Below, piece by piece: positions 2,371-61,201 of a stretch of 64,000 nucleotides of DNA. The first letter of the stretch is position 1, and each line of letters opens with the position of its first letter. Made by a program: the position numbers and the translations under genes. Below the pieces are notes generated by a model. The model had not been told where the DNA came from. It saw nothing but the letters and a program-made list of their open reading frames with translations, and made no database searches. The DNA is from a virus (taxonomy: Duplodnaviria; Heunggongvirae; Uroviricota; Caudoviricetes), in IMG/VR virus record IMGVR_UViG_3300029859_000151. The stretch is one strand, 5' to 3'.

Positions 2371-2409
2371 AAAATAACAATAATTCATTGTTTGAGAAAG
2401 GAGAAGGAC

Positions 2410-3351
2410 ATGAAAAAACAACTTCAGAATATTTCTATTGCTGGATGTATTGGAGCAGGAAAAAGCATGATATCTAAAGAACTGGAAAAAGAGGGCTACC
2501 AAATTGTCTCTGCCGGAAGCCTTTTTCGCCAATACGCAAAAGAGCATAATATCTCTATAGAAGAAGCTATTTCCGGCCATACAGAAATTGATACAAAAAT
2601 TGATTCAAATATTGTAAATCTAGGGAAAACAAAATCTGGGATTGTTTTTGACTCTAGAATGGCATGGCATTTTGTGCCAGATAGTTTTAAGGTATTTGTT
2701 TATGCTGATTTGGACGTGGCTGCTGATAGAGTTTTTAAAGCAAATCGTGAAACCGAAAGTTTTCAAACAATTGAAGAATGCAAAAATAATATTTTATCCA
2801 GACAATCAAAAGAACTAGCGAATTATCAAAAAATGTATGGACAAGATTATATGGATAGCAAAAATTATGATTTGATTATTGATTCTACATATGCAACGCC
2901 AGAAGAAGTAGCAAAGAAAATTTTAGAGTGCATTGATCATCCTCATGCAAAATTTCAAATGAATCCCAGGTCTTTATATCCAACTCAGAATATTAGAGAT
3001 TTGTCAGGAGAAATTCTTGATCAATATGTGAAAAAAGAAATTCCTGCTGGCAGTATTAAAATAGGATGTTATGATGGATACTTTGGGGTTACAGATGGGC
3101 ATCACAGATTTTTAGCTGCTGCTATAAATAAAGAGCCTTTTATTTCGGCTGAATTTGATCCTATGCCAGAAAAAACACATATTGTCTCTAAGACCGAAAT
3201 TTATAATTATGAAGACGTTGCTGGATTTTATTATTCAGAATATCCGGAGGATAAAGAAAAATATTGTTTCGTTGAATTTTGTAATGAAAGTCCGGAAATA
3301 ACTGTTGGATTTGAAAAAGAAAAAGAAGATGTATTGGAAGTTGAACCATAG
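2410..3351 (+). CDS. cytidylate-kinase-like P-loop kinase fused to ParB/Srx-like domain (DGHHR motif)
   Basis: N-terminus has Walker A IAGCIGAGKS and SAGSLFRQ, resembling the cytidylate-kinase-like family. C-terminus has GCYDGYFGVTDGHHRFLAA, resembling the ParB/sulfiredoxin (DGQHR-like) fold. ATG at 2410 after GAAAGGAGAAGG RBS. Confidence 0.7.
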   Translation: MKKQLQNISIAGCIGAGKSMISKELEKEGYQIVSAGSLFRQYAKEHNISIEEAISGHTEIDTKIDSNIVNLGKTKSGIVFDSRMAWHFVPDSFKVFVYADLDVAADRVFKANRETESFQTIEECKNNILSRQSKELANYQKMYGQDYMDSKNYDLIIDSTYATPEEVAKKILECIDHPHAKFQMNPRSLYPTQNIRDLSGEILDQYVKKEIPAGSIKIGCYDGYFGVTDGHHRFLAAAINKEPFISAEFDPMPEKTHIVSKTEIYNYEDVAGFYYSEYPEDKEKYCFVEFCNESPEITVGFEKEKEDVLEVEP

Positions 3352-3499: not shown

Positions 3500-3904
3500 A
3501 TGCATTTAGACACAAATAATCATTCGGTGTTCATGTTACATTATCATCTTATCATGTGTGTAAAATATCGTAATAAAGTGATAAATGATGATATCTCTAA
3601 TCGTTTGAAGGAGATATTTATAAAGATGCTCCTACCTATAATATTACGTTAGAAGAATGGAATCACGATATAGACTATGTTCATGTTCTATTTAGAGGGC
3701 AACCAAATACTGAAATCAGTAAATTTATTAATGCTTATAAATCTGCAAGCAGTCGGTTTATCAAAAAAGAATATCCAAAGATTCGCAAATCTCTTTGGAA
3801 AGAGATGTTCTGGTCACAAAGTTTTGCCTACTGACCACAGGTGGAGTTACTACAGATATTATTAAACAATATATTCAATCACAAGGTAAAAAAGATGGCA
3901 AATA
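3500..3904 (+). pseudogene. tnpA: IS200-like Y1 (HUH) transposase TnpA, disrupted by at least two frameshifts
   Basis: translation MHLDTNNHSVFMLHYHLIMCVKYRNKVINDDISNRLKEIF in frame 1 continues as KDAPTYNITLEEWNHDIDYVHVLFRGQPN..SKFINAYKSASSRFIKKEYPKIRKSLWKEMFWSQSF in another frame and ..CLLTTGGVTTDIIKQYIQSQ in a third; total span about 135 codons, equal to full-length TnpA. Confidence 0.65.
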
Positions 3905-5034
3905 AAGCAATTAAATATAGAGTATACCCTACAACTGAACAAAGTATCATGTTTGCAAAAACCTTTGGCTGTTGCCGTAAGGTCTATAATCTTATGCTTT
4001 CTGATAAGATTGAAGGTTATAAAATGACTGGTAAATTTCCAATAGTCACACCTGCTAAATATAAAAATGAATATCCCTATCTTAGAGAAGTAGATAGTCT
4101 TGCTCTTGCCAACAAACAGATGGATTTGCAGGAAGCCTTTCGTAACTGTTTTAGCAGATCTCGTAAAAAGAATAATGGATTTCCTAAATATAAATCTGCA
4201 AAGCATAGCCGTAAAGCATATACTACAAACAATCAGAAAGGTACAATTTCTATTATAGATAACAAATATATCAAACTTCCTAAAATTGGTAAAGTGAAAG
4301 CTGTCATCCATCGTAACCCTGATAGCTATTGGGTTATTAAATCTGCTACTGTATCTCAGGAATCAGATGGAAAATATTATATTTCTATACTTTTTGAATT
4401 TGATAATGTTGTAAATACTTATATAGCCGATAAAGCGAATGCTATCGGATTAGATTATGCTTCTAATGGCTTATATGTGGACAGTAATGGCGATGTAGGC
4501 ACTAACCACAAATACTATCGTGAAAGCCATGATAAACTTGCCAAGGCACAACGGAGATTATCACGCATGCAAGGTTCTAAAAAGGATGAAGAAAAGTCTA
4601 ATAATTACATTAAACAGCTGCGTAAAGTAAACAAAATCCACAGACATATTGCTAATCAGCGTTTAGATAACTTACATAAAATATCTACTGAGATAGCCAA
4701 TCAGTACGATGTTGTTTGCGTGGAAAGTCTAAACATGAAAGCTATGTCCAATAAGGGATTTGGAAACGGTAAGGCTACTCTTGACAATGGATATGGCATG
4801 TTTCTGTCGATGCTTAAATATAAGCTGACTGATAGAAATAAGTATCTTGTAAAAGTAGATAAATGGTTTCCGTCATCACAAATATGTCATTGCTGCGGTG
4901 CATTACATCCCGAAATGAAGAATTTAGCAATCCGTACAATGAAATGTGATTGCGGTCTTACAATCAGTCGTGACCAGAACGCAGCTATCAATATATTACA
5001 GGAAGGATTACAGATTCTGACTGAAGCAGCATAG
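3895..5034 (+). CDS. tnpB: TnpB (RuvC-like RNA-guided nuclease family, OrfB_IS605) with C-terminal zinc finger
   Basis: MANKAIKYRVYPT N-terminus; RuvC-like blocks IGLDYASNG, VVCVESLNMK, RDQNAAINIL; CHCCG..CDCG zinc finger; start overlaps the tnpA end. Confidence 0.85.
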   Translation: MANKAIKYRVYPTTEQSIMFAKTFGCCRKVYNLMLSDKIEGYKMTGKFPIVTPAKYKNEYPYLREVDSLALANKQMDLQEAFRNCFSRSRKKNNGFPKYKSAKHSRKAYTTNNQKGTISIIDNKYIKLPKIGKVKAVIHRNPDSYWVIKSATVSQESDGKYYISILFEFDNVVNTYIADKANAIGLDYASNGLYVDSNGDVGTNHKYYRESHDKLAKAQRRLSRMQGSKKDEEKSNNYIKQLRKVNKIHRHIANQRLDNLHKISTEIANQYDVVCVESLNMKAMSNKGFGNGKATLDNGYGMFLSMLKYKLTDRNKYLVKVDKWFPSSQICHCCGALHPEMKNLAIRTMKCDCGLTISRDQNAAINILQEGLQILTEAA

Positions 5035-5175
5035 CAAAATCAAATATATAGTAGGGATGGAATTGACCCGAACTTATACGCCTGTGGACATTGCGTAAGG
5101 CATGTGGCTGCATAACATTGCAGCCAACGCAGTAGTGGCTGAAGCAGGAAGCCCCGACTTCTATAAGTCGGAGTA
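5035..5175 (+). ncRNA. probable TnpB-associated omega-RNA / right-end structured region
   Basis: immediately 3' of tnpB; multiple hairpins (TGCAGCCAACGCAGTAGTGGCTGAAGCAGG, CCCCGACTTCTATAAGTCGGAG) ending at the IS right end. Confidence 0.4.
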
Positions 5176-11067: not shown

Positions 11068-11079
11068 TCTGACATATTA
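11068..11079 (+). promoter_or_regulatory. phage promoter motif copy + conserved leader
   Basis: TCTGACATATTAAATATGAATTTAAAACGAGTTCATAAAAACTCAAATATTTATGAAAAATGGAGG. Confidence 0.6.
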
Positions 11080-11142
11080 AATATGAATTTAAAACGAGTT
11101 CATAAAAACTCAAATATTTATGAAAAATGGAGGATAATAAAA

Positions 11143-12871: not shown

Positions 12872-12883
12872 TCTGACATATTA
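12872..12883 (+). promoter_or_regulatory. phage promoter motif copy
   Basis: TATCTGACATATTAAATATGAAATTTAAAAAC. Confidence 0.55.
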
Positions 12884-12925
12884 AATATGAAATTTAAAAA
12901 CAAAAGAAAAAAGGAGGATTTTTTT

Positions 12926-14545
12926 ATGAAACAAGTATTACAAAAGAACCATCGATTTTCATTTGGCATTGATTTTGATGACGTTTTGGCTCCATTAAAT
13001 GATGTGGCAGTTGAGCTTGCTAATGAAAAATATGGATTGAATTTAACAATAAATGATATTACTTGCTGGGAGCATACAGAGAAAACAAAAGTTGTTAAAG
13101 AATTTTATGCACTAAAAAGCACATTAGATAAACAGGTTGTGCCTGAAAGTGCTAAAAAATTTATCAAAGAATTACAGAAATTAGGAGATGTGTATATCAT
13201 TACGGCGGTTGTTCCGGAGCTTATGGGGGTTCGGATTCAACAGATCAAAGCTGCCTTTCCGAATATTCCTGATGAAAATATTATTATGGGTTATGCTAAG
13301 AATCTCGTCCATTTTGATGTTACATTAGATGATGGACCTCACAATATTTTAAAAAGTACAGCAACTTATCCGGTTCTATTTCGTAAGCCCTGGAACCGAA
13401 TGTTAAGTGGAGTATTGGCTGTTAATAATTATGATGAATTTTTGACGTTGGTTCATCAGATAAAAAGTGCATTTATGGAAGAAAAAAAGGAAATGACAGA
13501 GCCTACAATTATTGCTTTAGTCGGACCATCAGGAAGTCAAAAGAATAAATTGGCGAAACAATTAGAGAAAATAGGAATGGGAGAAATTGTTTCTAGCTAT
13601 ACAACAAAAGGATCGATATTTAATCGACCCAAAACACATTTAAGTTCTGAAAAATTCCAGACATGGAAAAACGAAGGGAGGCTTTTCTCGACTACAGTAT
13701 ATGCTGGATATGATTATGGGACAAGTAAAGAAAGTATTGATAGCAAATTGTCTCAAGGTAAAAACGTGATTATGCCATTAGATATTTGCGGAGCCATAGG
13801 TTTGCAGAGATTTTATCCAACAATTCTTATTTTTTGCAAACAGAGTCGAGAAAAAATGATTGAAAACATTCTTTTTGATCCGGAATCCGATAATGAAGAA
13901 AAAAAATTCAAATTACTTTCAATGGAAAAAGAAATCGAAAATGCTAGGCTCTGTGATTATAAAGTATGTACAAGTAATATTGAGGATGCTGCTAAGGAAA
14001 TTTTTGAAAAATTGCTAACTAGTATTGAAAACCCTGAAGGTGATGAAATTGCTAAAAATGTAGTATCAGTATATTCGGATGGAAAAAGCGAAAGATCTTG
14101 TGTCGGTGCATTAGAGATTGCGAAATACATTTTGACAGAATGTGAAAGGATGGGAAAGCCGATTACAAATTCTCAATTACAAGTATTATTGTATTTCGTG
14201 CAAAGAGATTTTTTACAGATAAAAAGAAGACCAGCTTTTAATGAAAAGTTTTTGGCGCATCCATTATGGCCAATATGTATGGATGTTTATTATTATTATT
14301 GCGGATATGGTTGTATGCCAATAATACCAATATTTGACCCTTCAGTAGAGAATATCTCTTTGCCAAATCATTATACGGAAATTGTTGATCCGATTATCAA
14401 AATCTTTTTGCAAAGTGGAGATCGGTTTCAGCCAGGAGAAGTGAGTAAAAATATAGGCGCATGGGTTAAGACGAGAGAATATGGAGAACGAGAAAGAATA
14501 GAAAATCCTGAAATACCAATAGACTTGATAAAAGAAGATAAGTGA
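12926..14545 (+). CDS. 5'(3')-deoxyribonucleotidase-like HAD domain fused to guanylate-kinase-like P-loop domain plus C-terminal domain
   Basis: N-terminus FGIDFDDVLAP (HAD motif I DxD), ITAVVPEL, DDGPHN resembles NT5C-type 5'-nucleotidases. Middle has LVGPSGSQKNKLAKQL and SSYTTKG (guanylate kinase GxSGxGK / TTR-like motifs). ATG at 12926 after AAAAGGAGG. Confidence 0.7.
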   Translation: MKQVLQKNHRFSFGIDFDDVLAPLNDVAVELANEKYGLNLTINDITCWEHTEKTKVVKEFYALKSTLDKQVVPESAKKFIKELQKLGDVYIITAVVPELMGVRIQQIKAAFPNIPDENIIMGYAKNLVHFDVTLDDGPHNILKSTATYPVLFRKPWNRMLSGVLAVNNYDEFLTLVHQIKSAFMEEKKEMTEPTIIALVGPSGSQKNKLAKQLEKIGMGEIVSSYTTKGSIFNRPKTHLSSEKFQTWKNEGRLFSTTVYAGYDYGTSKESIDSKLSQGKNVIMPLDICGAIGLQRFYPTILIFCKQSREKMIENILFDPESDNEEKKFKLLSMEKEIENARLCDYKVCTSNIEDAAKEIFEKLLTSIENPEGDEIAKNVVSVYSDGKSERSCVGALEIAKYILTECERMGKPITNSQLQVLLYFVQRDFLQIKRRPAFNEKFLAHPLWPICMDVYYYYCGYGCMPIIPIFDPSVENISLPNHYTEIVDPIIKIFLQSGDRFQPGEVSKNIGAWVKTREYGERERIENPEIPIDLIKEDK

Positions 14546-14555
14546 AAGAATGCAA

Positions 14556-14595
14556 AAAGCAACAAGAAATTAAACCTTGTTGCTTTTTGATTTTT
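14556..14595 (+). terminator. rho-independent terminator
   Basis: AAAGCAACAAG-AAATTAAAC-CTTGTTGCTTTTTGATTTTTG. Confidence 0.6.
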
Positions 14596-14598
14596 GAA

Positions 14599-14610
14599 TC
14601 TGACATATTA
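14599..14610 (+). promoter_or_regulatory. phage promoter motif copy
   Basis: ATCTGACATATTAAATAAAAG, 31 nt before ATG 14642. Confidence 0.55.
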
Positions 14611-14641
14611 AATAAAAGATAAAGAATAAGGAGAAAAAATA

Positions 14642-15665: not shown

Positions 15666-16379
15666 ATGTTAGATTTTTTTAGAGAAAAGCGGTCAAGCGA
15701 AAATTTTCTGCTTGTAGCAGATACACATAATCAACTGCAAAATAATGATGACTTGGAAAAGTTCGTTAATATAATTGGGATTCCAGGATCAGCTCATCAG
15801 AAATATCAACATATTTTACTTTTAGGAGATATTTCGGTAAATGATATTGAATGTATACGAAAATTATTACCGAAGTTATTTGAGAAAGGAGAAGTATATG
15901 GCATTTATGGAAATCATGATGCAAAGAAAACATTTAATTGGTTTGGAATACATGACTTGCATGGACGGATGGCGAATGTTTCTGGGATCAAGATAGCCGG
16001 TTGGGAAGGGAGTTCAAAATATAAAAATGAAAGATTTCCATCCATGTTGCAAAATGAAAGTATCCAATATGCAAAAAACATATCTATTTGTGGAGAATTT
16101 CCGGATTTGTTAATTTCGCATGATAAGCCAAGAACAGATTGGGTAAAAGAAGAACATGCCTTGGAAATTTTAGAACATCATGTTGGGTTGGCAGGGATTT
16201 ACGAATATATGAAAATAGCAGACATTCCAGTAAACATTCACGGACATTATCATACTAATTATGCGAAACAGCTTCCCAACGGTTCTGAAGAAATCTGCAT
16301 TTTCCCATTTGCTTGCTTAAGGATTTGGAAAGATCGAGCTTTTCGTATATATGATATGAATGGAAAAGAAATTCAGTAA
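15666..16379 (+). CDS. calcineurin-like metallophosphoesterase
   Basis: LVADTHNQ (motif I), LLLGDIS (motif II GDxxD), IYGNHDAKK (GNHD/E), HGHYH. Confidence 0.7.
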   Translation: MLDFFREKRSSENFLLVADTHNQLQNNDDLEKFVNIIGIPGSAHQKYQHILLLGDISVNDIECIRKLLPKLFEKGEVYGIYGNHDAKKTFNWFGIHDLHGRMANVSGIKIAGWEGSSKYKNERFPSMLQNESIQYAKNISICGEFPDLLISHDKPRTDWVKEEHALEILEHHVGLAGIYEYMKIADIPVNIHGHYHTNYAKQLPNGSEEICIFPFACLRIWKDRAFRIYDMNGKEIQ

Positions 16380-17103: not shown

Positions 17104-17128
17104 ACCCACGATGGGAAGGAGAATAATT

Positions 17129-17620
17129 ATGATTGAAGAAAACAAAAACTTTTGGGAAAATTGTGGACATACATATGAGGAGCATGTTGATGTCGATAAT
17201 CAGGATTTGAAAAACCGTGTTATGTTTGGGACATATGAAAGCGGAAGATTTGATGGACAAGGTAAATCAATTTGTTCGCGTTTTTCATCAGAAAAAATTG
17301 CTAAAATGGCTATCGAAAGAACACTTGAAATAAGATGCTCTGAAATTGAAGAGTGGATGAAATTGGGCTATCAGGAAGAAATTGTTGTAACAGTGAATTT
17401 TAGTAAAGCTATTGGAGTAGGATATGTGAAAGGCACGAACTTACGAAAAGATCCTTATTTGATGTATTCTATTTGCATGGTGTTACGTGCAGATGCTCAT
17501 TTCCGTTCATATTCTATAGTAACAGCTTACCCAATACCGAATAGAAATGTTGGAAAGCAAATTGCTAAAGACAAAAAAGACTTTTATGAAGAGAGAAGAG
17601 CCAGAAGAACTCAGAGATAG
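17129..17620 (+). CDS. hypothetical protein (163 aa)
   Basis: ATG after GGGAAGGAGAATAATT. Confidence 0.5.
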   Translation: MIEENKNFWENCGHTYEEHVDVDNQDLKNRVMFGTYESGRFDGQGKSICSRFSSEKIAKMAIERTLEIRCSEIEEWMKLGYQEEIVVTVNFSKAIGVGYVKGTNLRKDPYLMYSICMVLRADAHFRSYSIVTAYPIPNRNVGKQIAKDKKDFYEERRARRTQR

Positions 17621-24540: not shown

Positions 24541-26811
24541 ATGTTACAGATTTCTACATTTTTTATACAGAATAGTGATGAAGCAACTTCATTAGAAAAG
24601 AAAAATCATGAAAATGCTTTTGAATATTTGCCGGAAGCGAAAGCTAAAACATATAGTGAACTTTTGGATAATAAAACTGGCGTAGGATGCACAATTCAAT
24701 TAGTCCCTTCAGAAAAGGAAGGGGCTAAAGAAAATGCGTTAATTGAAAATGGAATGAATTTATATTTGTTATCTACAGCCAGAAGAGCCTTCTTGGAAAA
24801 AGATTGCGATTGTTTGGTTAGCTTATCGTTTAATGAAGATAGTCCGGAAAACAAAAATCGAAATGGGATGATTGTTTATGCCATTTTAAAAACTGATAAT
24901 CGTAAATATATAGATGATATGTTGCCGGATATTTCAAAATATATTTGTGAAAAATTAGGTATTGAAGAAAGTAATACTGAAGAAATAGATAATAACAGAA
25001 TGAGTTCTGAACAAAGAAACGAAAGTAATAAAAGTAATGATGACAATGAAAGTAAGAAAAGCACAAATGAATCAAATGAAATTAGCAATGAGAAAATAAC
25101 GAAAACTTCTGATGCTTTAGATATAATGCCAACAACCGTTTTAAGCCAAAAACAGGCTATAGATAATTACTCCTTGAATAATAAAGAAAGAAATGTGTCT
25201 AAAAAAACAGAAAAGGTTTCAGAAAATTTAAAATCAAAAAAAGTAACAGAAGAAGATATAGAAGATATTTTTTCTATTGCTCAAAAACAAGAAAAAACAT
25301 CTAACATAGAAGAATTTGAAAAGTTTGAATTAGAAAATAATGAAGAGAATCAAAAAAATGAAAAGATGGATTCTTTTTTTATAGAAGAATCTGATAAAAA
25401 TGAAGAAAAGCTATTTTTGGATGAACCACACGAGATAGAGGATGAAAATGAAACAAAATTTCAAAAAAAAGAAAATAAGGAAGAGCAACTAAAAAGACAA
25501 AAAGAAACACAAAAGGAATTGTTAAAAAAATCATCGAAGAAAGCCCCTTTTTTAAATGTAATTGATAATTATATTCCTGATAGCAACTTGGAAAATAAAG
25601 AACTTTTCAAAACATATCACGATGTTGATTACAACATAAAAACAACTGCTTCTAAAGATAAAATAGATAAACTTTTTAATCAGGCACTTAGTTATTGCTA
25701 TCAGAATAAAAGAAGTGAACTTTCTCATGCACAGGAAGGATCTGGAGATATCAAAGCTTTTTTGAATACAATTGCTATTTATGTAAAAGATAGCTTAGAT
25801 CTTCCAGTTGAAGACCGCGATTATTTTATGGATAAAATAAAAAGAGCTTTATTCTCTTATTATATTTTAATCCCATTGATTAACGATCCTCAAGTTTCTG
25901 ATATAAAGGTACTTGCCCCAGATAAAATAAATGTAAAAATAGATGGTATTCATTATAGTGTAGATGGATTAAAATTTGTTGATGCAGACGATTTCCTTAC
26001 CTTTACACTTGGATTAATGCGCCGAAATGGAGCTAAACCGATCAACGGTATTTCAAAATTTACAGATACTAAATTCTGTGATAATTATATTCTCCGATTT
26101 GATGTAACGTTCCCTCAAATAAATGTAAGCGGGTTCCCTGTTGTTCATATTAGAAAAATGGAAAAGAACAAAATGATGATTTCTGATTTAATTAAAGCGG
26201 GAATGTTGGATGAAAAAATGGCAGCTTATTTTAAAGATAAGTTGCGGACAAGTAAAGGTATCGTTATTGCTGGACCATCTGCATGTGGAAAATCAAAGTT
26301 CTTAAATGCGTTAGTAGAAGAAATTCCTTTTACTGAAGCGGGATTAGCAATCCAGGAAGCGGATGAAATTTTTGCTAAAAATCATCCCAATATTATGTGC
26401 CAGCATATGTATTTTGGCGCTAATGGGAATGTTTTGGCTGGAATGGACAAACTTGGAGAAAATGGACTTGTATGCGATGTTAAATATTTTATTATTGGAG
26501 AAATCAAGGGCGCTGAGGCAAGAGACTTTTTGCGAGCAGCTAATACTGGACATATATGTCTATGCACAGTACATACGCCGTCAGCAGAAGAAACAATTCC
26601 TCGATTAGCTGATTATGTGATGCGCGGAACAAGATATAGTATGGAAGAGGCAGAACGACTTTTAAAGGATTTGGAAATAATTGTATATGTTGATAGATTT
26701 AAAATCCGGGAAATAACAGAAGTCCTCGGGTATGATGAAGAACATAAAAAATTAATCTATCGAACAGTATATCTAAGAGATTACCAAAATGAAAACGGAA
26801 AGAGTGCTTAA
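24541..26811 (+). CDS. CpaF/TadA/VirB11-type secretion-family ATPase with long low-complexity (K/E/N/S-rich) N-terminal half
   Basis: VSDIKVLAPDKINVKIDGIHY (TadA/CpaF N-domain motif), Walker A VIAGPSACGKSKFLNAL, Walker B and His-box FIIGEIKGAEARDFLRAANTGHICLCTVHTPSAEE. Residues about 140-330 are a repetitive E/K/N-rich region. Confidence 0.75.
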   Translation: MLQISTFFIQNSDEATSLEKKNHENAFEYLPEAKAKTYSELLDNKTGVGCTIQLVPSEKEGAKENALIENGMNLYLLSTARRAFLEKDCDCLVSLSFNEDSPENKNRNGMIVYAILKTDNRKYIDDMLPDISKYICEKLGIEESNTEEIDNNRMSSEQRNESNKSNDDNESKKSTNESNEISNEKITKTSDALDIMPTTVLSQKQAIDNYSLNNKERNVSKKTEKVSENLKSKKVTEEDIEDIFSIAQKQEKTSNIEEFEKFELENNEENQKNEKMDSFFIEESDKNEEKLFLDEPHEIEDENETKFQKKENKEEQLKRQKETQKELLKKSSKKAPFLNVIDNYIPDSNLENKELFKTYHDVDYNIKTTASKDKIDKLFNQALSYCYQNKRSELSHAQEGSGDIKAFLNTIAIYVKDSLDLPVEDRDYFMDKIKRALFSYYILIPLINDPQVSDIKVLAPDKINVKIDGIHYSVDGLKFVDADDFLTFTLGLMRRNGAKPINGISKFTDTKFCDNYILRFDVTFPQINVSGFPVVHIRKMEKNKMMISDLIKAGMLDEKMAAYFKDKLRTSKGIVIAGPSACGKSKFLNALVEEIPFTEAGLAIQEADEIFAKNHPNIMCQHMYFGANGNVLAGMDKLGENGLVCDVKYFIIGEIKGAEARDFLRAANTGHICLCTVHTPSAEETIPRLADYVMRGTRYSMEEAERLLKDLEIIVYVDRFKIREITEVLGYDEEHKKLIYRTVYLRDYQNENGKSA

Positions 26812-31237: not shown

Positions 31238-32770
31238 ATGTCATTATTAAATTTATCACTTATACCAATTATTGTTGCAGTATTAGTAATTGCATTACTT
31301 TGCATGGGATACGTGAAAGCGCCGCCGGATATGGCATATATTATTTCCGGTGTCAAGAAGAAGTCCAAAGTAGTCATCGGAAAAGCGAGTATTCGTATTC
31401 CATTTTTTGAGCGACTGGATAAGCTGAATCTACGGTTAATTCCAATTGACGTTAAGACAAGCAATGCTGTACCGACAGCAGACTACATCAATATCAATGT
31501 TGATGCAACTGTTAACATTAAGATCAGCAACGATCCAGAGAAGCTGCGGCTTGCGGCAGAGAATTTTTTAAATAAAAACACTGAGTATATTGCCGGGGTG
31601 GCAAGAGAGGTTCTTGAGGGTAATGTGCGTGAGATCGTCGGCAAGATGAAGCTCGAAGAGATGGTGTCTGACCGTCAGAAGTTTGCTAATCTGGTTAAGG
31701 AAAATGCAGAGCCGGATCTTGCAGCGATGGGACTCGATATTATTAGCTTCAATGTCCAGAATTTCGTGGATGGCAATGAGGTTATTGAAAATCTGGGTAT
31801 TGATAATATCGTAAAAATCAAGAAGAGTGCAGCGATTGCCCGTGCCGAGAGTGAGCGAGATATTAAAGTTGCTCAGGCAAATGCGGACAAGGAATCTAAT
31901 GATGCTGCCGTAGCCGCACAGACCGAAATCGCAAAGAAGCAGAATGAGCTTGCCATTAAGAAATCTGAACTTCAGATGGAAGCAGATACGAAAAAGGCTA
32001 TGGCTGATGCTGCTTATGAAATTCAGAAAGAGGAACAGCGTAAAACAATTGAGATCGCTACCGCAAATGCAGATATTGCAAAACAGGAGCGGGAAATTGA
32101 GTTGAAACAGAAGGAGGTTGCGGTCAAGGAGCAGTCTCTAGAGGCAGAGATTAAGAAACAGGCAGAGGCTGATAAGTATGCGGCACAGCAGAAAGCCGAT
32201 GCGGAGTTATATAAACGACAGAAAGAAGCAGAAGCAAAGAAATATGAAATGCAGCAGGAAGCAGAAGCTATGAAAGCGAAAGCAGAAGCAGAAAAATACG
32301 CTAAAGCACAGAATGCAGAGGGTATTCGCGCTATTGGACTTGCAGAAGCGGAAACTATTAAGGCGAAGTCGGTTGCAGAAGCTGAAGGTATCGAAAGAAA
32401 GGCAGAAGCACAGGCAAAGATGGGACAGGCGTCTGTAATTGACATGTTGACAGCTGTTATCCCGGAAGTGGCAAAGAGTGTAGCTGAGCCGTTAGCAAAA
32501 GTTGACAAGATCACAATGTATGGAGATGGTAATTCTACTAAATTAATTGGAGACATTACAAACTCTGTGACAAAAGTAATTGCTGGAGTAGGAGAATCAA
32601 CAGGAGTTGATATTTCCAAAATGGTAAAAGATTTTGCTGAAAAAACTAATGACAAGAAAGATGGTGATGTCATTGTAGACCTTGAGGCAAATGCGAACAC
32701 CAATGATAAAGCAATTGACACAAAGGATGATGACGATTCAGAGGATGTAGATTACAGAGAAGAGAAGTGA
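31238..32770 (+). CDS. SPFH/band-7 flotillin-like protein (YqiK/FloT-like)
   Basis: N-terminal TM helix, SPFH core (IPIDVKTSNAVPTADYININVDATV.., DRQKFANLVKE..) and a long Ala/Glu/Lys-rich coiled-coil (AEAEKYAKAQ..). Local GC is markedly higher than the rest of the window. Confidence 0.8.
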   Translation: MSLLNLSLIPIIVAVLVIALLCMGYVKAPPDMAYIISGVKKKSKVVIGKASIRIPFFERLDKLNLRLIPIDVKTSNAVPTADYININVDATVNIKISNDPEKLRLAAENFLNKNTEYIAGVAREVLEGNVREIVGKMKLEEMVSDRQKFANLVKENAEPDLAAMGLDIISFNVQNFVDGNEVIENLGIDNIVKIKKSAAIARAESERDIKVAQANADKESNDAAVAAQTEIAKKQNELAIKKSELQMEADTKKAMADAAYEIQKEEQRKTIEIATANADIAKQEREIELKQKEVAVKEQSLEAEIKKQAEADKYAAQQKADAELYKRQKEAEAKKYEMQQEAEAMKAKAEAEKYAKAQNAEGIRAIGLAEAETIKAKSVAEAEGIERKAEAQAKMGQASVIDMLTAVIPEVAKSVAEPLAKVDKITMYGDGNSTKLIGDITNSVTKVIAGVGESTGVDISKMVKDFAEKTNDKKDGDVIVDLEANANTNDKAIDTKDDDDSEDVDYREEK

Positions 32771-34628: not shown

Positions 34629-34640
34629 TCTGACATATTA
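34629..34640 (+). promoter_or_regulatory. phage promoter motif copy
   Basis: GTATCTGACATATTAAATATGAAATG. Confidence 0.55.
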
Positions 34641-34678
34641 AATATGAAATGTTGATTAAGAAAAAAGGAGATGAAAAA

Positions 34679-49503: not shown

Positions 49504-50166
49504 ATGAAGATTATTAAAAGAAATGGAGAAGAAAAGCCATTTCAAGCTGAAAAAATTGCAAAAGCGATTAGCAAGGCAAATGAAAGTGTGATCGATTATG
49601 AACGATTGAGCGAATCTCAAATTGCCGAAATTGTCTCAAATGTGACAAAAGCCTGTGAGAACATGAGCCATAGCCCTAATGTGGAAGAAATTCAGGATAT
49701 GGTTGAAAATCAGATTATGCAGCAAGGGGCATTTTCTGTAGCAAGAAATTATATTACTTATCGTTATAAACGAGAAATCGTTCGGAAATCAAATACTACT
49801 GATCAACAGATTCTTAGTTTAATTGAGTGTGATAATGAGGAAATTAAACAGGAGAATTCTAATAAGAACCCAACAGTGGTCAGCGTGCAAAGAGATTATA
49901 TGGCCGGGGAAGTCAGTAAGGATCTAACAAAAAGATTTTTTTTACCACCAGATATTGTCGAAGCGCATGAAAATGGACTTATACATTTTCATGATGCTGA
50001 TTATTTCTGCCAGAGAATGAACAATTGTGGACTGGTTAATTTGGAGGATATGCTTCAGAACGGAACTGTTATTAGTGGAACAATGATTGAGAAACCTCAT
50101 AGTTTTTCGACAGCCTGCAATATCGCAACACAAGTAATTGCTCAAGTAGCGAGCAGTCAGTACGGT
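49504..50166 (+). CDS. nrdD: anaerobic ribonucleoside-triphosphate reductase NrdD, exon 1 (ATP-cone + N-terminal part)
   Basis: MKIIKRNGEEKPFQAEKIAKAISKA is an ATP-cone start typical of NrdD. The ORF runs to ..VASSQYG, then the frame hits a stop 8 codons later inside the intron. Predicted exon end at T50166. Confidence 0.75.
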
Positions 50167-51402
50167 TTAAAGAGATCTGCCGTACTTTAAAAACAATATT
50201 AACCATCAGAGATGGGGTTATGCCTTAAATGGCATGGCTAACGAGGTAGGTTGGAAAAGCTGATCTCGTGATCATTTTGATAATTAACGATTTTTAAAAA
50301 TAAAGAGGTGGAATGCCTATGGCAAAAACAACAAGTGCAACAAGTGCAACAAATGCAGAAAAATCTGAGCTTATGAAATCTGCGATTTTTCAATTATATA
50401 GTAAAGAGGGAAGATCAATTTGTTATATTAGTCGGTTATTGGAAATCAACAGGAAGACGCTTTCAGAAAAAATAGAAGAATGGGATTTTCCAAAACCAAA
50501 ACCGACAAAATATGTAAAACCGTCAACCCAAAAATTTATTAATAAAAATAGAGCTTTGATAAAATCTCGTTTGGATAATGATATTTCCATAACAAAAATT
50601 GCGGAGGAATTGCAAGTTGAGCGAAGTTTTCTTCAAAAAACAATTATTCCAAATGACGAAATTTTGTATAAGGCAAAATGTGATTATATAAAAAGAAAAC
50701 AATCAAATGCAGAAGAGCGCAGAAATGAAATATTGAAAAATTCAAGGCAGGAATATATTTTTAGTGATTTGCCCGGGGAGATTTGGAGACCTATTTTAGG
50801 GTACGAAGGATATATGGTATCCAACAAAGGACGAATTAAAAAATATGCAAAAAGATATAAGGCATATTATTTAATTGCCCAAACTCCAAACAAAAATAAT
50901 GGGCGCTTATACGTTTGTTTGTTTAAGGGGAATAAAAGAAAAAATATGCAAGTTGCAAGAATTGTCGCACATGCATTTGTGGATGGATTTGATGGCACAC
51001 ACAATACTGTAAATCACGAAGATGGGAATGTCCAAAACAATGAAGCCACAAATCTTACTTGGACAAGCCAATCAGAAAATAATAAACATTCGTATACAAA
51101 ACTAAATCGGCAAAAAGTGAATTTTAAGAAATATAAGTTTAAAAAAATTATCTATAAAGAAAAGTATGAGTTTAAAACGGTTGCTGCATTGGCGCGTTTT
51201 TTAGGAAAATCTGAAACACAGACTAGACGTTATTTAGATTATCCGGAAAAACATAATTTGCAATTATGTAATTAACAAAATGATTGTAACGACTACCGTA
51301 AGCTATCAGCGATGATAGTTGAAACATATTGGCGGATATAATAACAATATCTGCAAGAAATAGTCTAAGCTATGTGTAGAATACGAACTTACATAGTATT
51401 TG
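50167..51402 (+). other. group I intron (predicted) interrupting nrdD, carrying an HNH endonuclease ORF
   Basis: 5' exon ends in U and the intron ends in G (G51402). Joining 50166 to 51403 restores a continuous frame ..IAQVASSQYG|GQSISLAHLAPF.. Structured GC-richer segments lie at 50190-50310 and 51276-51400. Confidence 0.6.
50313..51275 (+). CDS. HNH homing endonuclease (intron-encoded), with NUMOD/AP2-like DNA-binding region
   Basis: IWRPILGYEGYMVSNKGRIKKY; HNH motif VNHEDGNVQNNEATNLTWTSQSENNKHS; N-terminal HTH-like segments. Confidence 0.75.
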   Translation: MPMAKTTSATSATNAEKSELMKSAIFQLYSKEGRSICYISRLLEINRKTLSEKIEEWDFPKPKPTKYVKPSTQKFINKNRALIKSRLDNDISITKIAEELQVERSFLQKTIIPNDEILYKAKCDYIKRKQSNAEERRNEILKNSRQEYIFSDLPGEIWRPILGYEGYMVSNKGRIKKYAKRYKAYYLIAQTPNKNNGRLYVCLFKGNKRKNMQVARIVAHAFVDGFDGTHNTVNHEDGNVQNNEATNLTWTSQSENNKHSYTKLNRQKVNFKKYKFKKIIYKEKYEFKTVAALARFLGKSETQTRRYLDYPEKHNLQLCN

Positions 51403-52944
51403 GGACAGAGCATATCTTTAGCACATCTTGCTCCTTTTGTACAGATAAGCCGAGAGAAGTTTCGTAAGCAGATACAAAAAGAAGCCATAGATACAAAGAT
51501 TGCTCTTGACAAAGAACAGCTTGAAAGAATTGTGGAATCTCGTGTAAGAGAAGAAATTAACAAAGGAGTTCAAATGATTCAGTATCAGATCATTACGCTT
51601 ATGACGACTAATGGCCAGGCTCCATTTGTTACAGTTTTTATGTATTTACACGAAGTTCCGGAAGGACAAACAAGAGATGATCTTGCGATGATCATTGAGG
51701 AGGTGCTTAAACAGAGAATAACAGGTGTTAAAAATGAGCAAGGAGTATATATTACTCCGGCGTTTCCAAAGTTAATTTATGTATTGGAAGAAGATAATAT
51801 TAAAAAAGATTCAAAGTATTGGTATTTAACAGAACTTGCTGCAAAATGTACAGCAAAAAGAATGGTCCCGGATTACATTTCTGAAAAAGTCATGAAGTCA
51901 GTTAAAGAAGGCGAAACTTTCCCTTCAATGGGGTGTAGAAGTTTTCTTACTATAGACCGTTTTTCGGAAACAAAAGGCAATATCTCTAAAGCAAAGAATT
52001 TTGAGGAGCATAAAGGACATGTATATTACTCAAGATTTAATCAGGGTGTGGTGACAATCAACCTGGTTGATGCAGCTTGTACTTCAGGTGGAGACGAGGA
52101 AAAATTTTGGAAAATTTTAGATGAACGTTTGGAATTGTGCCATCGTGCATTACGTATTCGTCATGAGCATTTGTTAGGAACAAAATCAGATGTAGCACCA
52201 ATTCTTTGGCAGCATGGAACATACGCCCGATTAGAGAAAGGGGAAACAATAGACCAACTTTTGGTTGGTGGTTTCTCAACAATATCATTGGGATATGCCG
52301 GATTATATGAATGTACTATGCGAATGAAAGGTGTGTCACATACTGATCCAAAGGGAACGCCATTTGCGATTGCTGTTATGCAGAAATTAAATGATGCATG
52401 CAATAAATGGAAGGCAGAAGAAAATATTGATTATTCTGTATATGGGACACCTTTGGAATCGACAACTTATAAGTTTGCAAAATGTCTTCAGAAAAGATGG
52501 GGAATTATTAAAGATGTAACGGACCATAATTATATTACAAATTCATATCATGTATGCGTAAGAGAACATATGGACGCTTTTACAAAATTGAAATTTGAAT
52601 CACAGTTTCAAAAACTATCCCCGGGCGGAGCAATCAGTTATGTAGAAGTTCCTAATATGCAGAACAATATTCCTGCAGTACTTTCTGTAATGCAATTTAT
52701 TTATGAAAATATCATGTATGCAGAGCTAAATACAAAGAGTGATTATTGCATGCAATGTGGATATGATGGAGAAATCCAGATTGTTCCAGATGAAGATGGA
52801 AAGCTTATATGGGAATGTCCAAAATGCAAAAACCGTGATCAAAGCAAAATGAGTGTGGCACGAAGAACTTGTGGTTACATTGGGACGCAGTTCTGGAATC
52901 AGGGCAGAACACAGGAGATCAAGGAACGCGTTCTGCATTTATAA
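51403..52944 (+). CDS. nrdD: NrdD, exon 2 (glycyl-radical C-terminal part)
   Basis: C-terminus CMQCGY..CPKCKNRD zinc ribbon followed by the glycyl-radical motif RRTCGYIGT; the track ORF begins at TTG 51400, but the reading frame is open across the 3' splice site. Confidence 0.75.
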   Translation, partial: GQSISLAHLAPFVQISREKFRKQIQKEAIDTKIALDKEQLERIVESRVREEINKGVQMIQYQIITLMTTNGQAPFVTVFMYLHEVPEGQTRDDLAMIIEEVLKQRITGVKNEQGVYITPAFPKLIYVLEEDNIKKDSKYWYLTELAAKCTAKRMVPDYISEKVMKSVKEGETFPSMGCRSFLTIDRFSETKGNISKAKNFEEHKGHVYYSRFNQGVVTINLVDAACTSGGDEEKFWKILDERLELCHRALRIRHEHLLGTKSDVAPILWQHGTYARLEKGETIDQLLVGGFSTISLGYAGLYECTMRMKGVSHTDPKGTPFAIAVMQKLNDACNKWKAEENIDYSVYGTPLESTTYKFAKCLQKRWGIIKDVTDHNYITNSYHVCVREHMDAFTKLKFESQFQKLSPGGAISYVEVPNMQNNIPAVLSVMQFIYENIMYAELNTKSDYCMQCGYDGEIQIVPDEDGKLIWECPKCKNRDQSKMSVARRTCGYIGTQFWNQGRTQEIKERVLHL

Positions 52945-61161: not shown

Positions 61162-61173
61162 TCTGACATATTA
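61162..61173 (+). promoter_or_regulatory. phage promoter motif copy
   Basis: AAATCTGACATATTAAATAAAAAAC. Confidence 0.55.
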
Positions 61174-61201
61174 AATAAAAAACAGAAAGGAGCGGCGATT
61201 T

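Follow-up and report, generated by a model that had tools for sequence, protein, structure and literature searches.

The gene and its three domains

The stretch analyzed here, 64,000 nucleotides of the Caudoviricetes record IMGVR_UViG_3300029859_000151 (the window), carries at positions 12926 to 14545 on the + strand a gene for a three-domain protein of 539 amino acids plus stop (ATG at 12926, stop codon at 14543-14545). The protein starts with an NT5C-type HAD 5′(3′)-deoxyribonucleotidase domain, continues with a domain of the guanylate kinase (GK) fold whose catalytic motifs are degenerate, and ends with a Panacea domain of the kind found in SocA/PanA antitoxins. The original prediction, made from the sequence alone, had described a fusion of a HAD phosphatase with a DxD motif and a GK-like domain in one polypeptide. 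Pfam, PHROG, PDB, and AlphaFold2 (AF2)/Foldseek results agree on both of these domains; the third, of about 145 residues at the C terminus, had been missed.

The fused frame is not confined to one assembly. A protein of 542 amino acids with 96% identity to the window protein, P0001, is encoded in the same frame on at least eight contigs from independent metagenomes, and its neighboring genes are those found in the window. The two alleles differ by about 10 substitutions and an in-frame 3-codon indel, concentrated in a variable linker between the GK-like and Panacea domains (residues 369-395; 14030..14110, + strand) that has a predicted local distance difference test (pLDDT) score of <60 in the AF2 models. 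Nei-Gojobori estimates of the ratio of nonsynonymous to synonymous substitution (dN/dS) between the window gene and the P0001 allele were 0.11 overall, 0.03 for the NT5C domain, 0.04 for the GK-like domain (24 synonymous and 5 nonsynonymous changes), 0.28 for the linker, and 0.18 for the Panacea domain. The three folded parts are all under purifying selection, and the fused frame is maintained. An assembly or frameshift artefact is ruled out by the independent contigs, the in-frame indel, and this selection.

The gene forms a transcription unit of its own. A GGAGG ribosome binding site, read from the sequence, is found 8 nt 5′ of the ATG (12913..12917, + strand), and an exact copy of a promoter-like or regulatory box, CTGACATATTAAATA, is found 38 nt upstream of the ATG (12873..12887, + strand). 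Directly after the stop codon is a GC-containing, intrinsic terminator-like hairpin (GCAACAAG ... CTTGTTGC) followed by a T-run, TTTTTGATTTTT (14553..14595, + strand), and a box search placed the CTGACATATTAAATA box of the next gene at 14600-14614. Since the fusion gene has its own box and terminator and the next gene has its own box, the fusion gene is monocistronic and has no co-transcribed partner. The 15-mer is present in 34 copies in the window (two or fewer mismatches) compared to 0.69 expected by shuffling. Thirty-one of these are on the + strand, mostly shortly 5′ of + strand start codons, and the distance from box to start codon was 0 to 40 nt in the six cases checked. Example copies, spread over the window, are at 564-578, 821-835, 11069-11083, 12873-12887, 14600-14614, 34630-34644, and 61163-61177. 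The sequence has the look of a promoter or regulatory box specific to this element, one that defines many single-gene transcription units. A longer, TTG-initiated open reading frame (ORF) from 12800 was rejected as the true start because P0001 begins with MKQVLQ and because the promoter-like box would fall inside the extension.

The NT5C domain spans residues 10-185 (12953..13480, + strand), as delimited by Pfam, motif, and Foldseek matches. Pfam NT5C (PF06941) matched residues 14-176 over profile positions 5-174 of 180 (E = 1.3e-15; 58.1 bits against a cutoff of 24.8). All four HAD motifs are complete, namely, motif I at D16-F-D18-D19-V20, motif II at T93, motif III at K125, and motif IV at D135-D136, and the family-specific residues R103, D131, N140, and P155-W156-N157 are also present. 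The motif I stretch reads GIDFDDVLAP at residues 14-23, with I in place of the first F of the FDFDDVLAP quoted in the original prediction; the two motifs quoted for the GK-like domain, GPSGSQKNKL (residues 200-209) and SSYTTKG (residues 223-229), are correct. Across 86 aligned family members the NT5C motif residues are invariant or at least 90% conserved, and only one of the 40 conserved NT5C columns deviates in the window protein. The Panacea fragment and residues 1-375 were modeled separately with AF2. The model of residues 1-375 (pLDDT 92.9; predicted template modeling [pTM] score 0.90) superimposed on the deoxyribonucleotidase-like structure 3bwv with a template modeling (TM) score of 0.90 and a root mean square deviation (rmsd) of 2.1 Å. 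It has a helical cap at approximately residues 24-84, between motifs I and II. A helical HAD cap at this position suits small-molecule rather than polynucleotide substrates. The domain is therefore regarded as a catalytically competent (deoxy)nucleotidase on the strength of its motifs, and its activity would most likely be the hydrolysis of deoxynucleoside monophosphates (dNMPs) to nucleosides. By analogy with the human enzymes mdN and cdN and with Dtm of phage PBS1, pyrimidine dNMPs are probably the preferred substrates.

These enzymes, together with YorS of phage SPbeta, share the capped HAD fold and the DxDxV, T, K, and DD motifs with the window domain. They differ from the window protein in being single-domain proteins of about 170 to 200 amino acids, whereas the window protein is multidomain. 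In SPbeta the kinase-like protein YorR, of the Tmk/dNK type and not the GK type, is encoded by a separate gene adjoining yorS, whereas the kinase-like part of the window protein is fused. The gene yorR, annotated as thymidylate kinase (L011:3480-3977), is directly upstream of yorS, the NT5C gene (3986-4504), and the YorR P-loop is itself atypical (GPDCCFKS, with no Gly before the Lys). SPbeta is thus an independent instance in which an NT5C enzyme is paired with a protein of the P-loop kinase fold whose Walker A motif is noncanonical.

The guanylate kinase-like domain and the NT5C-GK family

The second domain covers residues 193-368 (13502..14029, + strand), as defined by Pfam, PDB, Foldseek, and motif evidence. 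Pfam Guanylate_kin matched residues 196-360 just above its cutoff (E = 7.6e-6; 26.2 bits versus 25.2), and the PHROG "guanylate kinase" profile matched at E = 2e-17. Many solved guanylate kinases in the PDB were also matched, with E values down to 3.6e-9, and Foldseek aligned the domain with Coxiella Gmk (3tr0; TM score 0.80, rmsd 2.4 Å). The region is a true guanylate kinase homologue and not a generic AAA domain, the other identity that had been considered for this P-loop region, since both the profile and the fold matches are to guanylate kinase. The two Gmk equivalog models failed by a wide interval, with 53.7 bits against 160.45 for TIGR03263 and 41.7 against 263 for NF011325.

The states of the kinase residues, read from an alignment to guanylate kinase 7luy and from the family columns, show extensive loss. 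The Walker A pattern GxxGxGK[ST] is not matched by GPSGSQKN, in which the Lys alone is kept: the P-loop Gly is replaced by Q205 and the P-loop Ser/Thr by N207. The Arg of the TTR motif is K228, the second GMP-binding Arg (RxGE) falls within a deleted segment, the conserved Tyr is K236/T237, and the guanine-binding Glu is V258. Of the LID arginines, the first is D318 (family consensus R/K, 83%) and the second is K329 (family consensus R, 91%). Residues that are kept include K206, T226-T227, Y259, Y264-G265, D286, G289, E336, and D344, so that the nucleoside monophosphate (NMP) pocket is left with the TT pair, Y259, Y264-G265, and D286, plus the P-loop Lys. When seven kinase residues were scored (P-loop Gly, P-loop Ser/Thr, the TTR Arg, the Tyr, and three Arg around the LID), the window protein had none of the seven. 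The original prediction held that the two domains would catalyze opposing reactions. This is now doubtful because most of the phosphoryl transfer and GMP-binding residues of NMP kinases are gone, and on these residues the window domain is rather probably not an efficient kinase. Most likely, judging by its motifs, it would be a pseudokinase that binds a nucleotide or phosphate and regulates the phosphatase or acts as its scaffold.

Two comparisons are useful here. Gmk (PF00625) has the same fold as the window domain, and the P-loop Lys, TT, YG, and D motifs are common to both; compared to Gmk, the window domain is without the P-loop Gly/Ser, both GMP-phosphate Arg, the guanine-binding Glu, and both LID Arg. 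The GK domains of the MAGUK scaffolding proteins retain the fold and have lost the catalytic residues. The window domain resembles them in having kept its fold without the residues for catalysis; MAGUK domains bind peptides, however, and the likeness is one of fold and motif only.

The pairing of NT5C with a GK-like domain is a widespread architecture and was not invented by the window phage. A word index search returned 668 matches, and the best 120 of these are nearly all 330 to 390 amino acids long, are 39 to 62% identical to the window protein, and carry both domains. An exhaustive search of representatives found 123 cluster representatives at E ≤ 1e-30. The relatives are collinear with residues 1-368 of the window protein from end to end, with the same domain order, all of the NT5C catalytic residues, and a conserved GK-like core; over residues 10-365, hundreds of proteins are 40 to 62% identical to it. 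They are about 350 amino acids long, with the GK-like domain at their C-terminal end; the linker and Panacea are additions of the window protein and P0001. Members are encoded on chromosomes of gut Clostridia, on mobile elements, and by large phages; "guanylate kinase" is the annotation of some, for instance, those of Faecalimonas umbilicata and Pseudobutyrivibrio sp. ACV-2. In chromosomes the gene was seen between the genes for PEPCK and SpoIID, near PheRS, and in a second context adjoining an amidohydrolase and a fructose phosphotransferase system. Other contexts were one integrase-bearing island and small phage-like contigs. Members are also found on eight IMG/VR viral contigs of 5 to 233 kb, seven of which are at least 60 kb. 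Because the chromosomal contexts are ordinary ones, the NT5C-GK fusion is unlikely to be intrinsically toxic or to be devoted to modified DNA. The 233-kb contig, L031, is of jumbo phage size and encodes two GK-fold proteins in tandem: a GK-like gene of 233 amino acids (L031:3315-4016) overlaps the start of an NT5C-GK gene with a canonical GPSGSGKTT P-loop (4013-5122). A full-text literature search combining deoxyribonucleotidase, guanylate kinase, and phage found no experimental study of the family.

The kinase residues vary greatly within this family. Of the 86 aligned members, 45 have the canonical set (G205, S/T207, mostly R228, Y236, E255, R306, R318, and R329), and 41 are without S/T207 and often also without G205, R228, and R306. 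The noncanonical group contains the window protein, its closest relatives, and the chromosomal proteins P0006 and P0007. Among 209 other members, only three share the window protein's score of zero, and the count of kinase residues falls with closeness to the window protein. The NT5C half is consistently better conserved than the GK half, with 56% versus 46% identity in the main bin. The column of the guanine-binding Glu is not conserved anywhere in the family, and for this reason even the canonical members are probably not GMP kinases. For the half of the NT5C-GK members that have lost the kinase catalytic set, the window protein included, the database label "guanylate kinase" is probably wrong.

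These data bear on a bifunctional enzyme, in which NT5C would dephosphorylate one dNMP (e.g., dTMP) and the GK-like domain would phosphorylate another, perhaps modified, one (e.g., dUMP), switching the deoxynucleotide pool. Several observations are in its favor. Both domains are real homologues of the enzymes named, there is no variation at the P-loop Lys and at several residues of the NMP site, the kinase-like domain has a dN/dS of 0.04, and about half of the family has the full kinase residue set. The unconserved Glu column fits a non-GMP substrate. Phages PBS1 and PBS2 combine an NT5C-family dTMPase with a dUMP kinase (PMC12697855), the SPbeta P-loop kinase gene yorR stands directly upstream of yorS, and the window also encodes NrdD and a cytidylate kinase-like protein. 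On the other hand, the window protein retains none of the scored kinase residues, and the degenerate clade is also found in ordinary bacterial chromosomes, which make no modified DNA. Moreover, the window ORFs scanned, over the 64 kb of the element, included no dCTP deaminase, Ugi-like, thymidylate synthase-like, or base modification gene, which leaves the idea of deoxyuridine-containing DNA (dU-DNA) unsupported. A bifunctional enzyme is on balance unlikely. The suggestion that the fusion handles modified nucleotides likewise loses ground to a family seated in Clostridia chromosomes and to the lack of modification genes among the scanned ORFs.

The Panacea domain

The C-terminal domain is a Panacea/DUF4065 (SocA/PanA antitoxin-type) domain at residues 396-539 (14111..14542, + strand), identified by profiles and HHalign. 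NCBIfam SocA_antitoxin matched at E = 1.7e-8, under its trusted cutoff, and phrog_1281 matched at E = 7e-17; Pfam SocA_Panacea was subthreshold (E = 0.71; 11.2 bits versus 25.7). In tblastn searches against phages, the matches were DUF4065/SocA proteins from phages of Streptococcus and prophages of Helicobacter. A single-sequence search with the C-terminal 165 amino acids against an index of 5.8 billion proteins gave no match. A profile of the window domain and three phage homologues gave 2,420 matches, of which the best 120 all carry PF13274 and are all stand-alone proteins of 115 to 184 amino acids. When the window domain was compared by HHalign with an alignment of 52 PF13274 proteins that had been built without the window sequence, the match was at 98.9% (E = 2e-17; 139 columns), and the window domain has the five invariant columns of the Panacea alignment. 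The AF2 model is confident in the core (pLDDT >88 at fragment residues 21-90 and 101-120). Foldseek found no significant match for this model in the PDB, and a BFVD fold search matched small phage proteins, one of them named a SocA-like Panacea protein, which is modest support. The nearest relatives are from Lachnospiraceae and Streptococcus prophages.

Stand-alone Panacea genes have a regular setting. In all four contexts inspected (P0330, P0314 of C. scindens, gp51 of Streptococcus phage P9, and the human-gut phage contig L013), the Panacea gene is followed by a gene for a partner of 235 to 332 amino acids. The spacing is 3 to 10 nt in two of the four, and in the other two the genes abut or the start is overlapped. 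Three of the four pairs come directly after prophage or phage holin/endolysin genes, the prophages being of the Lachnospiraceae/Streptococcus kind. The partner genes (L022:4439-5437, L025:4496-5407, L013:3499-4206, and L014:2507-3316, the last being phage P9 gp52) encode proteins that are homologous to each other at 24 to 36% identity and form a Pfam-less family; the L013 partner has hydrophobic C-terminal segments. This layout matches the classical two-gene arrangement of PanA plus partner in PanAT systems (PMC8832971), and the partners are a candidate for an uncharacterized PanT toxin family. Panacea itself has been proposed to be a sensory or accessory element rather than the neutralizing element (PMC10440598).

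The window domain departs from this setting. PanA/SocA antitoxins, known ones and relatives alike, are stand-alone proteins of 141 to 184 amino acids adjoining a toxin or partner gene, whereas the window domain is the C terminus of a 539-amino-acid enzyme. No cognate toxin gene is found within about 100 nt of it, and tblastn across the 64-kb window detected no partner homologue. The downstream gene for a 238-amino-acid protein, like every other window ORF, was ruled out as a PanT-like partner by homology searches. Fusion to Panacea is seen in none of the other NT5C-GK genes, none of 11 inspected NT5C-GK neighborhoods has an adjacent Panacea domain, and no Panacea gene lies within 4 kb of the eight IMG/VR NT5C-GK loci. 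Nothing closely related to the three-domain protein is present in IMG/VR. P0002, at 62% identity the nearest of the two-domain proteins, was considered as a fusion precursor and rejected; the gene downstream of it encodes an unrelated membrane protein. The three-domain architecture is thus confined to this phage lineage, and the Panacea fusion is its unusual part.

A fused Panacea domain raises the prospect of a single-chain, toxin-antitoxin-like effector. In this model the nucleotidase, together with the GK-like domain, would be a nucleotide-depleting effector held inactive in cis by Panacea and freed when Panacea senses a trigger such as a superinfecting phage, with superinfection exclusion or abortive infection as the outcome for the phage or prophage, as in fused CapRel. 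It would agree with the usual pairing of Panacea with toxins and its proposed sensory role (PMC8832971, PMC10440598), with the conservation of the fusion and the purifying selection on the Panacea domain, with a monocistronic gene that resembles an accessory "moron," and with nucleotide depletion as an established defense strategy (e.g., PMC10511110). Yet NT5C-GK proteins occur alone, without an antitoxin, in housekeeping chromosomal contexts, which makes them unlikely to be intrinsically toxic. The PADLOC defense models gave no match to the fusion, the lack of a fused Panacea domain elsewhere in the family and of an adjacent one in the 11 neighborhoods inspected also speaks against the model, and the region does not look like a prophage defense island but like the part of a large phage genome that holds early or replication genes. 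We consider such an effector quite improbable.

The element and a proposed role

The window has 31% GC content and nearly all of its genes on the + strand. It encodes UvrD-, RecD-, and Dda-like helicases, RecJ, and SSB. When 20 kb of the window was compared with phage genomes by megablast, nothing matched, and the best protein-level relatives of the element are human-fecal phage contigs. Upstream of the fusion, the gene at 2392-3348 (+ strand) encodes a protein of 319 amino acids with an N-terminal cytidylate kinase-like domain (Pfam Cytidylate_kin2, 1.5e-16); this second nucleotide kinase-like gene of the element also matches the PADLOC models pVip-kinase (5.4e-24) and VakA (1e-9). A TnpB/IS605-type transposase-like gene is found at 3841-5031 (+ strand; phrog_506, 2e-103). 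The anaerobic ribonucleotide reductase gene nrdD is split, with one ORF covering the ATP-cone and NRDD profile positions 1-104 and the other covering positions 105-562, and a NUMOD4/HTH homing endonuclease-like gene stands between the halves (49504-50187, 50313-51272, and 51400-52941, + strand). A Band_7/flotillin protein and a T2SSE-type secretion ATPase are also encoded (31238-32767 and 24541-26808, both + strand). In L017, a flotillin-like gene likewise lies close to the gene for P0003, an NT5C-GK homologue, a hint that the element there is a related one.

Downstream of the fusion are a calcineurin-like metallophosphoesterase gene (15666-16376, + strand; 1.1 kb away) and a gene for a protein with a CdiA-CT RNase A-like toxin domain (17111-17617, + strand; 2.5 kb away; Pfam RNAse_A_bac, 1.2e-14). 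Both are syntenic in the P0001 contigs, and no immunity gene was identified. The metallophosphoesterase was rejected as a conserved partner, since the window copy has no significant similarity to those near P0003 and P0002.

These two neighbors, encoded 1 to 3 kb downstream, could be taken to favor end healing of the kind carried out by T4 Pnkp, in which the HAD domain would remove 3′-phosphates and the P-loop domain would phosphorylate 5′-OH ends, repairing RNA or DNA cut by host nucleases. NT5C enzymes do accept both 5′ and 3′ phosphates, and PNKP is in outline a HAD phosphatase plus a P-loop kinase, the same layout as the window protein. T4 Pnkp and mammalian PNKP indeed join a HAD DxD phosphatase and a P-loop kinase fold in one chain; however, they belong to other Pfam families and have a cap-less, PNK3P-type HAD domain, whereas the window HAD domain is capped, so that the likeness is an architectural analogy only. 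The profile and fold matches of the window protein are to NT5C and guanylate kinase, with no Pfam match to PNK3P or the PNK kinase, and the helical cap between motifs I and II is typical of small-molecule nucleotidases. Further points against it are the degenerate kinase residues, the lack of a ligase in the set of window ORFs that was scanned, and a metallophosphoesterase that is not a conserved partner. End healing was rejected on the family and cap evidence and is extremely improbable.

The model that we favor is that of a nucleotidase joined to a pseudokinase and an orphan Panacea domain, acting as an accessory protein of an AT-rich gut phage; taken as a whole, it stands about evenly between being right and being wrong. 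The NT5C module would dephosphorylate dNMPs, draining or reshaping the host dNMP pool early in infection. The GK-like module, a legacy of the bacterial family, would act as a regulator that binds nucleotides and has little or no catalytic activity. The Panacea module may have been captured from the pairs of PanA and partner on prophages of likely hosts. In the fusion it would most plausibly serve either as an orphan antitoxin or sensor that binds a host or prophage PanT-like toxin in counter-defense or as a coupler of the enzyme to such a protein.

Precedents for the enzymatic part come from other phages. Dtm of PBS1 is a dTMP phosphatase of PF06941 and a precedent for remodeling of the dNMP pool by a phage NT5C enzyme (PMC12697855). 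The remodeling function first proposed for the fusion is partly supported: it keeps its phosphatase half and is doubtful on its kinase half. Dmp of phage T5 is a dNMP 5′-phosphatase that depletes dAMP to defeat Kongming, and phage dNMP phosphatases co-occur with dNMP kinases (DNK) in phage genomes (10.1101/2024.12.20.629578). The T5 pair resembles the arrangement proposed here in having a phage dNMP phosphatase that works early on the host pool and in pairing a phosphatase with an NMP kinase. It differs in that Dmp and DNK come from two genes, each with its own time of expression, whereas the window parts are fused and the kinase part looks inactive. Any relation to Dmp is remote at best, because the tblastn matches to the window protein included no T5-like phage.

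Within this model, a functional coupling of Panacea to the nucleotidase is tentative and somewhat unlikely, and it could take two forms. First, in counter-defense, the protein would dock onto a host or prophage PanT-type toxin (the family of partners of 235 to 332 amino acids) while depleting dNMPs. Second, in a sensor-effector form, Panacea and the pseudokinase would gate the nucleotide-depleting phosphatase on an infection signal within a single chain.

Several points weigh against the favored model. First, some P-loop kinases work with a residue other than Ser/Thr behind the Lys, as seen in adenylate kinase (GKGT) and PhnN (GKDS), and it is because these enzymes vary at this position that the lost arginines and the P-loop Gly were given more weight than N207. 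Second, Lys can partly stand in for Arg, which leaves room for residual or altered kinase activity. Third, purifying selection as strong as that seen on the GK-like domain would fit an enzyme that has diverged but is active just as well. Fourth, we infer substrate and activity from sequence across the whole NT5C-GK family. Finally, the role suggested for Panacea is argued from homology and from the absence of a partner within 64 kb.

If the fusion only co-expresses its parts, the gene would be a routine accessory gene. If the coupling is real, the joining of a Panacea antitoxin/sensor domain to a metabolic enzyme would be without precedent. Recent work has shown that phage dNMP phosphatases act in pool remodeling (dU-DNA) and in counter-defense (anti-Kongming), and a nucleotidase tied to Panacea, if so, would connect nucleotide pool warfare to toxin-antitoxin defense. 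Whether Panacea acts as neutralizer, sensor, or adaptor, its natural fusion to an enzyme that can be assayed makes a handy test case for its role. The NT5C-GK family, with hundreds of members, provides a natural series of active and inactive forms for the control of a dNMP phosphatase by a kinase fold.

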